Positions 11,652 to 13,115 of a stretch of DNA of 20,145 nt are shown in pieces. A program made the position numbers and the translations under genes. Numbering within the stretch: the stretch's first letter is position 1; each line of letters begins with the position of its first letter. The notes below the pieces were generated by a model, which ran no database searches, was not told the origin of the DNA, and saw only the letters and a program-made list of their open reading frames with translations. The stretch comes from Peptococcaceae bacterium (GTDB lineage Bacteria > Bacillota > Dehalobacteriia > UBA7702): contig DXZC01000024.1 in the NCBI GenBank assembly GCA_019415505.1, forward strand, positions 1-20,145, read 5' to 3'.

Positions 11652-13115
11652 TTAGGTTAATGCAGCATCCGCGGCCTTTACGATGTTCGCAATTTCGGTC
11701 AACTGTTCATCTGACAGTATTTTGGGATAATGTGTTTCCAAAATACGGCGGGCTTCTGCGTTAGCGGCCTGAGACAGATCCATGGCGCCGTTCTGGAGCC
11801 ATTCCTCCCTGGTACATCTGTTCATGATACGAGGGCAGGACTGCAAGTTCCTGAAGTTTTCAAAGGTGTGTTGGGCGCCCAGGTATTCGCCTTTAATGCC
11901 CACTTCCTTAATGAGGTCAACCGCCAAGGTTTCGTCATTGACGGGAATACCCCCTAATACTGTTTGCATCATGCGTATAAAATCCGCATCGGCAACTATT
12001 TGCCCTAAATCCATGGTTAAGCCGCTTTCCAGCATGCCCGGGCCGTATATCATGTTGGCTCCTGCCAACATGGGGAGCATAGCTGTAATGCTTTTTTCGT
12101 AACCTGCTTGCAGGTCTGGCGCCTTACTGTCTGTCTAGGTACCGGCTACTAGGGTGGGTAACTTATACAGCCGGGCAATGGCGGCAATGCCGGCGCTGAT
12201 TAGACCCAACTCCGGACAACCCACCATGGCGGCGGCGTTGTGCCTCATATCCAAAGTGCCGGTGGAGCTGCCGTAGATAAAAGGCGCACCCTTGCGGACA
12301 ATTTGGGACAGGGTTAAGGCCGCTAATATTTCGGCGTTAGCTACCACCAAGCAACCTGCCAGGGTAACTGGGGCCATACCACCGGACATAGCCATGGTTA
12401 GAATCATCGCCGGAATATTGTATTTTGCCGCTGTTATGGTGGCGGCTACAGTGCTGTCGGGAATTGACAGGGGGCTAATGGTACAGCCGCCCAACATCAT
12501 AAGGGGCCGTTCCTGCAAGTTATGGTAGCCGCCGGCGGCCGCGGCCCCCATTTGCATGAGAGCCTCCGCTGTTTGTTTATTTTCCGGACTGGCTAAGGCC
12601 GGCTTTTGTGAATTGGTTAAATGGGCTTCAAACCCATGTAAACAGGCTGTTGCCTCTGGGACGTCACGAGCCACCATGGTATCAAAGAGAAAGTCGTATT
12701 CAGCTAGATAATCCACCAGGCGGGAGCAGTCGGCAATATCCTGTTTCGTGGTTTCTCGCAGTTTGCCGGTTTTAAGGTCATGGATAAATATGCCTAAACC
12801 AAAGGGACAGACATAAACCCGGCCATCCTCCAGAATTATGTCGTATTCGGGGCTTTTACCCGCTAAAAATACGCTGGCAGGGGCTGAAGCAATGGCGCTC
12901 TCTACTAAATGGGCGGGAATCTTTACAGTATCCTTTGCCACATAAGCCCCTGCTTCAGCAAAGTAGTTTAAGGCTTCTTTGTCGTTGACTTGCACACCGG
13001 TATAGCGTAACACCTCCAGAGTTGCCAGATGAATATGCTGTAAATCATCCTGGGAAAATAATTGCAACGCCGCACCGGTAAAATTGTTGTAACCGGCATT
13101 TTTTCTCCTAAGCAT
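11652..13115 (-). CDS. mttB: MttB-family trimethylamine:corrinoid methyltransferase with an in-frame UAG (predicted pyrrolysine at codon 327 of 487)
   Basis: ORFs 12135..13115 and 11652..12080 are in the same frame. They are separated by only TAG plus 18 sense codons ([18 protein letters not shown]). The context ...LPTLVAGT-[UAG][14 protein letters not shown]...[14 protein letters not shown]... matches my recollection of the Methanosarcina MttB pyrrolysine region (...VAGS-O-SDAK...QAGHEK...LAGAN.IYG.GMLE). Total length and UAG position agree with archaeal MttB, which I recall as about 495 aa with Pyl near residue 334. Strong SD AAGGAGGG lies 5 nt before the ATG at 13115. Confidence 0.85.
12135..12137 (-). 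other. In-frame amber codon (candidate pyrrolysine codon)
   Basis: Plus-strand cta is minus-strand TAG. It is the only stop in the 1464-nt reading frame before the terminal TAA at 11652-11654. Confidence 0.8.

Follow-up and report, generated by a model that had tools for sequence, protein, structure and literature searches.

Does an in-frame amber codon in a gene of the mttB family mark a broken gene, the boundary between two genes, or a site at which pyrrolysine (Pyl) is inserted? The question is raised by contig DXZC01000024.1 of a Peptococcaceae bacterium (GenBank assembly GCA_019415505.1), of which we analysed positions 1 to 20,145 (20,145 nucleotides, hereafter the window). An earlier sequence-only reading had proposed that two neighbouring open reading frames (ORFs) on the minus strand form one full-length, Pyl-type MttB methyltransferase, and not two genes or a pseudogene. 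That proposal is supported here by the column at which the amber codon falls, by the family score of the conceptual protein and by the selection acting on the sequence past the amber codon; each of the checks suggested there that was run came out in its favour. We conclude that the locus very probably holds one intact gene, a member of the Pyl-containing MttB family in which UAG codon 327 is read as Pyl. The gene and its amber codon are:

11652..13115, minus strand: full-length gene of the mttB family, with UAG codon 327 very probably read as pyrrolysine (translation, Pfam, NCBIfam and Protein Data Bank match)
12135..12137, minus strand: in-frame amber codon in the column of pyrrolysine, matching Pyl334 in Methanosarcina barkeri MttB (structure alignment, orthologue conservation)

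One amber codon in a single reading frame

Translation of the minus strand from 13115 to 11652 gave 487 codons, all of them sense codons or TAG, followed by TAA, and the sole internal stop is codon 327. The two listed ORFs, 12135..13115 (326 residues) and 11652..12080 (142 residues), share this one frame. The sequence-only reading had described a single TAG within 487 codons, and translation confirmed it, with the junction as it had been given. It had also predicted that ORF callers would split the gene, and the public gene calls indeed hold mttB as two fragments, one of 326 residues and the other of 133 or 142.

Six metagenome assemblies of the window's organism, independent of one another, show the identical single TAG in the same frame. 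Five assemblies are identical over the gene and one carries six synonymous changes and one Val-to-Ile substitution; none shows a disruption, and no frameshift or extra stop was found among seven assemblies.

The amber codon falls on the pyrrolysine column

For database searches the conceptual protein was given an X at codon 327. A single match to the Pfam family MTTB (PF06253) extends over residues 15–478, across the TAG (327.7 bits, cut-off 25; E = 1e-97). Because one family match spans the TAG and the TAG recurs in six assemblies, the interrupted frame is not a product of chance. The protein also scored 609.9 bits over residues 16–483, against a curated cut-off of 525, with NCBIfam TIGR02369 (trimeth_pyl), which is an equivalog model for the pyrrolysine-containing trimethylamine:corrinoid methyltransferase.

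The top match among solved structures was M. barkeri MttB (7xcl, 7xcn; E = 4e-92). In this alignment the TAG lies exactly on the Pyl334 column, where it is paired with the X of 7xcl and with the K of the 7xcm variant, and a multiple alignment with 14 relatives agrees with the structure alignment. The glycine betaine enzyme MtgB, which contains no Pyl (2qne, 9yce; E = 3.5e-61), has Leu in this column. The assignment of the TAG to the Pyl column by the sequence-only reading is thereby borne out, and the Methanosarcina context that it gave around Pyl proved correct when compared with 7xcl, where the X stands at position 334.

In M. barkeri MttB the partners of Pyl334 are the invariant residues Gly110 and Tyr364, and trimethylamine is let in by a movement of Met249 (PMC9842639). 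All three have counterparts in the window protein, as G106, M241 and Y357 (Gly110, Met249 and Tyr364, respectively).

Conservation and selection across the amber codon

In a search that covered 5.8 billion predicted proteins, all homologues at 55–99% identity end at the TAG column under the standard code (326–338 residues, 67% query coverage), and about 80 further homologues at 45–49% identity likewise end there. No full-length homologue (476–503 residues) exceeds 46% identity, and in these proteins the residue at the Pyl column is Trp, Ser, Ala, Leu or Val. A member of the MttB superfamily without Pyl would be expected to have a sense codon at this column and not to depend on pyl genes; in the window gene the column is occupied by TAG.

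Selection was examined with orthologue DNA from four loci, designated L016 (81%), L017 (76%), L011 (70%) and L019 (67%), together with their paralogues. Five orthologues and four paralogues have the TAG in the Pyl column, as does the orthologue of a further locus, L117. Synonymous sites are saturated between orthologues (proportion of synonymous differences, pS, 0.68–0.85), and the proportion of nonsynonymous differences (pN) is 0.10–0.22 over the 326 codons before the TAG and 0.13–0.27 over the 160 codons after it. Purifying selection thus acts alike on both parts, with pN/pS downstream of about 0.19–0.37, similar to that upstream; the sequence-only reading had suggested the segment 3' of the TAG as a check on its proposal, and this segment is constrained as strongly as the 5' segment. 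The first 19 residues past the TAG form one and the same peptide in the window, L016 and L017, with silent differences in most of their codons, and neither a start codon nor a Shine-Dalgarno sequence is conserved just past the TAG. Further orthologue DNA was sought among metagenome contigs: a scan with a single protein gave no match, and an alignment scan returned one fragment only, 49% identical.

A lone in-frame stop, in a window that holds no pyl genes, resembles a fresh pseudogene, in which a nonsense mutation would have killed a formerly sense-coded gene of the MttB superfamily. The stop is, however, a TAG, and it is placed exactly at the Pyl column. It is common to all homologues at 55–99% identity and to orthologues whose synonymous sites are saturated, and the 160 codons downstream of it are constrained like those upstream and free of frameshifts and extra stops in the seven assemblies. 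We consider a pseudogene very improbable at this locus, and for the clade it is effectively refuted.

Alternatively, polypeptides of 326 and about 133–142 residues could be made separately and assemble without residue 327. Gene callers do find a downstream ATG, and an AGGAG-like string precedes the ATG at codon 355. However, the 19–27 codons between the TAG and the candidate ATGs keep their amino acids while drifting synonymously, which argues that they are translated in frame. The candidate ATG at codon 346 is a Leu codon in L011 and L117, and conservation is also lacking for the AGGAG-like string, in which GGA changes to GGC or GGT. Moreover, no motif of the family is more strongly conserved than the stretch that would be skipped, TDSK...QAG.EK. 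Separate synthesis of two chains is accordingly hard to credit. Neither a pseudogene nor a two-polypeptide gene can account for the TAG column, the pattern among homologues, the selection past the TAG and the population data, and a single gene in which codon 327 is read as Pyl remains the reading that we favour.

Pyrrolysine machinery in the window and in relatives

Some observations weigh against this reading. Within its 20 kb the window contains no pylT, pylS or pylBCD, no corrinoid protein, no RamA-type activase and no tRNA. Identity to M. barkeri MttB is only about 38%, and to MttB from bacteria in which the gene is linked to mttC and pyl genes it is about 46%; given this low identity to the characterised enzyme, trimethylamine as the substrate is an extrapolation. 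In addition, Thr111 of the Gly110-Thr111 cis-peptide is replaced by Leu in the window protein. Of this pair, Gly110 alone has been reported as invariant (PMC9842639).

We therefore looked at what accompanies the gene in relatives. The closest named orthologue belongs to Dehalobacterium formicoaceticum DMC (CP022121.1; 72% identity for the N-terminal part and 70% for the whole protein), which is reported to encode the pyl genes (PMC6778437). An orthologue with 70% identity and an in-frame TAG also lies on a Joint Genome Institute metagenome contig, Ga0439195_000086 (132,650 bp; L116/L117), 2.9 kb from tRNA-Pyl(CUA), pylSc, pylB, pylC, pylD and a gene of the size of pylSn. Its operon includes a gene for a B12-binding protein (mttC) and a second Pyl-mttB, in the order mttC-mttB-mttB. 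A B12-binding protein gene next to the orthologue was found in this L117 operon and in none of L011, L016, L017 and L019. The relatives with the orthologue decode Pyl, and we infer that the host of the window would likewise decode Pyl, by means of pyl genes elsewhere in its genome.

To look for such genes in a collection of species-representative genomes, we used a chimeric query that joined residues 97–273 of the window MttB to the C-terminal part of a Dehalobacterium-type PylSc, with three search peptides for each half. This yielded 236 PylSc loci and no match to the MttB half, so that neither the window's genome nor a representative of its species belongs to the collection. Three PylSc candidates, P0155 (GCA_040959955.1) and P0206 and P0306 (UBA metagenome-assembled genome GCA_002403815.1), have no sample in common with the window contigs, and the PylSc of D. 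formicoaceticum was not among the best 120 matches in either PylSc search. Two tRNAs upstream of the L019 orthologue were considered as tRNA-Pyl and rejected, as they are tRNAs for Pro and Gln.

The pyl loci of relatives have further features of their own. On Ga0439195_000086 (at L116 14111–16428, L117 573–2890) the pyl cluster is followed directly by an EamA transporter and a pterin-binding methyltransferase, and a RACo-type corrinoid activase is nearby. The whole route from methylamine to folate is clustered on this contig and dispersed in the window's organism. In L104–L115 (for example L106 8867–13929; GCA_002403815.1) a gene of the choline-kinase/APH family stands between pylSc and pylB; the cluster is otherwise a canonical pylT-pylSc-pylBCD-pylSn, followed by mttC and a Pyl-mttB.

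Amber codon usage and the PYLIS_3 match

The 18 other genes of the window (19 were tallied with mttB) neither contain an in-frame TAG nor end in one. When three genes of L008 7604–11661 are added to the 19, none of the 22 ends in TAG (19 TAA, 3 TGA). At loci of confirmed Pyl-decoding bacteria about 27% of ORFs end in TAG, a crude count that is inflated by split Pyl genes, and avoidance of TAG was accordingly rejected as a signature of Pyl decoding. The lack of terminal TAG codons may reflect a stronger avoidance of TAG in the window's organism than in its relatives, or no more than a small sample.

The absence of TAG ends among the 22 neighbouring genes could hint at altered codon usage, and hence at a UAG read by a suppressor tRNA other than that for Pyl or at a genome-wide reassignment of TAG. 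This is contradicted by the distribution of the codon, as no other gene of the window has an in-frame TAG and the only one falls in the column where Pyl is catalytic. Furthermore, orthologue-bearing relatives carry tRNA-Pyl and pylSBCD, and non-Pyl relatives in which the residue has been replaced form separate, distant clades. We regard readthrough or reassignment of this kind as extremely improbable and retain Pyl as the residue at codon 327.

An Rfam family also matches at the amber codon:

12038..12137, minus strand: match to Rfam RF02510 (PYLIS_3, 'pyrrolysine insertion sequence mttB'), beginning at the UAG (70.2 bits, gathering score 38)

Base pairs are few in the PYLIS_3 model, and at four of them the pairing in the window match is non-canonical. 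The model also matches an MttB paralogue with Trp at the Pyl column (L016 1678–1777, minus strand), at 50.6 bits, which is above the gathering score. Because this Trp-coding paralogue is matched as well, the score reflects conserved coding sequence and not an element specific to UAG. PYLIS_3 was thus rejected as independent evidence of recoding, and we take the match as a sign of coding conservation, not as a proven RNA structure.

Probable operon, putative promoter and genomic setting

The following features surround mttB:

13122..13128, minus strand: strong Shine-Dalgarno sequence of mttB, AAGGAGG, 6 nt ahead of its ATG (sequence reading)
13171..13186, minus strand: promoter-like element of the sigma-54 type, TGGCAT-N5-TTGCT, located 56 nt upstream of the start codon of mttB (sequence reading)
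10640..11593, minus strand: transporter of the EamA/drug-metabolite transporter family, 58 nt downstream of mttB (Pfam EamA)
10587..10608, minus strand: intrinsic-terminator-like hairpin and T-run after eamA (consensus scan)
13452..14900, plus strand: divergent sigma-54 enhancer-binding protein with PAS sensor, AAA+ and C-terminal helix-turn-helix (HTH) parts (Pfam PAS, Sigma54_activat, AAA_lid_14)
13242–13265, 13319–13342 and 13333–13356: three direct repeats of about 24 nt, AT-rich, with core TGTAAAATATAATTT on the mttB strand (repeat scan)

The element TGGCAT-N5-TTGCT agrees well with the sigma-54 -24/-12 consensus, and a GG-N10-GC motif occurs 52–152 nt upstream of the orthologues and paralogues in L016, L017, L019 and L011. 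We infer sigma-54 control of mttB-eamA. The hairpin after eamA is the likely end of this operon, and the EamA protein is presumed to be the substrate permease; it is 53% identical to the EamA protein beside the D. formicoaceticum orthologue and 49% identical to that in the L116 pyl cluster.

The divergent PAS/AAA+ protein is the presumed regulator of mttB-eamA. It shares 72% and 62% identity with the divergent activators beside the L016 and L017 orthologues. Activator, mttB and transporter form a conserved cassette in related loci, where orthologous activators and EamA genes adjoin the methyltransferase gene. The best NCBIfam match of the activator is PrdR, the proline-reductase regulator, at 347 bits; as this is far below the cut-off of 795, the activator is a regulator related to PrdR but distinct from it. 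Its C-terminus reads in translation as a Fis-type HTH, and Pfam HTH_8 was not reported. The three direct repeats may be binding sites for the activator. They belong to the intergenic region of 336 nt that separates mttB from the activator gene, 60–170 nt further upstream than the sigma-54 element. Several inverted repeats lie in the same region.

The cassette is present as a single copy between recO and spoIIGA-sigE. It is flanked by yabP, yqfD, phoH, ybeY, dgkA, era, mgtE and recO on one side and by spoIIGA, sigE and cdaA on the other. The presence of yabP, yqfD, spoIIGA and sigE points to a spore-forming member of the Bacillota as the host.

At the D. formicoaceticum locus (L011) the mttB-eamA cassette is closely followed by a cobalamin riboswitch (13181–13350; Rfam RF00174, 75 bits) and then by Peripla_BP_2, FecCD and ABC_tran genes, a set resembling an ABC transporter; the riboswitch and these transporter-like genes tie corrinoid supply to the locus. 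Two gene models elsewhere in the window also deserve comment. The 809-residue 7TM-HD receptor (window 2682–5111) appears as two overlapping ORFs, of 550 and 269 residues, in a European Nucleotide Archive assembly (L001 15022–17449), which suggests a frameshift or an assembly error there. At 16940–17981 the first DUF881 gene is listed with a TTG start at 17722 (260 residues), so that it overlaps DUF1290 by 134 nt; public calls give a 219-residue version (16940–17599), and the longer start is probably an artefact.

Proposed function and substrate

For Pyl incorporation, the substrate and the control of the promoter we propose the following. The ribosome would read UAG codon 327 as pyrrolysine by means of tRNA-Pyl(CUA) and PylS encoded elsewhere in the genome, giving a 487-residue TIM-barrel enzyme. 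The Pyl imine of this enzyme would bind and activate a methylated amine, most likely trimethylamine, and the Co(I) of a corrinoid protein, separate and also encoded elsewhere, would then accept the methyl group. mttB would be co-transcribed with the gene for the EamA-family permease from the sigma-54 promoter, which the divergent PAS-AAA+ enhancer-binding protein would turn on, presumably when substrate is present.

The window MttB falls in what, judged by sequence identity, is a divergent subclade: orthologues are 66–81% identical to one another, and identity to the M. barkeri enzyme and to MttB linked to mttC and pyl genes is 38–46%. This distinctness raises the possibility of a Pyl-dependent subfamily, with its own PAS-sigma-54 activator and a permease of the EamA or major facilitator superfamily type, that demethylates an amine other than trimethylamine. 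In relatives, several Pyl-MttB paralogues are found next to one another; each has an activator and a transporter of its own and usually no adjacent mttC. In addition, position 111 is Leu or Val, not Thr, in the subclade. 'Candidatus Formimonas warabiya' encodes 23 Pyl-containing methylamine methyltransferases, and seven Pyl-containing proteins of the MttB superfamily were present in its metaproteome; the authors of that work propose possible novel roles for Pyl-MttB proteins, and both this multiplicity and their suggestion favour a different substrate. On the other hand, the window protein passes the curated TIGR02369 equivalog threshold for the trimethylamine enzyme, it retains the equivalents of Gly110, Met249 and Tyr364, and the L117 orthologue belongs to an mttC-mttB-mttB operon beside pyl genes, the classical arrangement for trimethylamine. 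To our knowledge no Pyl-MttB with another substrate has been characterised, which we also count against it. A substrate other than trimethylamine is thus unlikely on balance, and trimethylamine is the amine that we favour for the window enzyme. If another substrate were nonetheless used, pyrrolysine chemistry would extend past the three classical methylamines (mono-, di- and trimethylamine). With Pyl-MttB paralogues multiplied in this lineage, and none of them characterised, it is reasonable to begin with this subclade when asking about further Pyl substrates.

Comparison with known systems

That Pyl-encoding mttB genes occur in anaerobic Firmicutes and Deltaproteobacteria, and that annotation pipelines truncate them, is established (PMC6778437, PMC7593587). 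The statement of the sequence-only reading that both groups include Pyl decoders is therefore in keeping with the literature, and Pyl decoding in spore-forming Firmicutes is already known. What the locus adds is an uncultured spore-forming lineage of the Bacillota, related to Dehalobacterium by its MttB, to the bacteria with Pyl enzymes. The gene should be annotated as one protein of 487 residues with Pyl at residue 327, as calls in fragments hide a capacity for methylamine utilisation, and the presence of the read-through gene makes it probable that the organism uses a code of 22 amino acids. The module of PAS/sigma-54 activator, Pyl-mttB and permease is also unlike the textbook arrangement of mttB-mttC-mttP with pyl genes.

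Compared with M. barkeri MttB (7XCL, 7XCM, 7XCN; PMC9842639), the window protein shares the Pfam and NCBIfam family, the UAG column and the equivalents of Gly110, Met249 and Tyr364, and it is of similar length (487 residues, against 503 in the solved chain). It is encoded in a bacterial host, is only about 38% identical, and has Leu in place of Thr111; its gene has no adjacent mttC or mttP and appears to be controlled by a sigma-54 activator. Bacterial Pyl-MttB proteins of Acetohalobium arabaticum, Bilophila wadsworthia and the Desulfitobacterium, Desulfotomaculum and Thermincola lineages (PMC7593587, PMC6778437) are encoded with an in-frame TAG in the same way, and in Bilophila the methyltransferase and pyl genes are likewise not adjacent (PMC7593587). 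Relative to bacterial copies linked to mttC and pyl genes, such as L100, identity is about 46%, and EamA and the PAS-sigma-54 activator take the place of mttC.

In D. formicoaceticum DMC, a different species, the orthologue has the same layout of activator, mttB(TAG) and EamA. D. formicoaceticum and 'Candidatus Formimonas warabiya' DCMF both encode many MttB paralogues with and without Pyl, as well as pyl genes (PMC6778437); in contrast to their multiplied paralogues, the window cassette is a single copy. Finally, the non-Pyl enzymes MtgB (2QNE, 9YCE) and MtpB, MtcB and MtyB (as cited in PMC9768040) belong to the same superfamily and have the same fold, and MtgB shares with the window protein the DSK...QAG.E motif after the Pyl column. 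The substrates of these non-Pyl members of the superfamily are quaternary amines, and their Pyl column is filled by a sense codon, whereas the window gene has TAG at this position.

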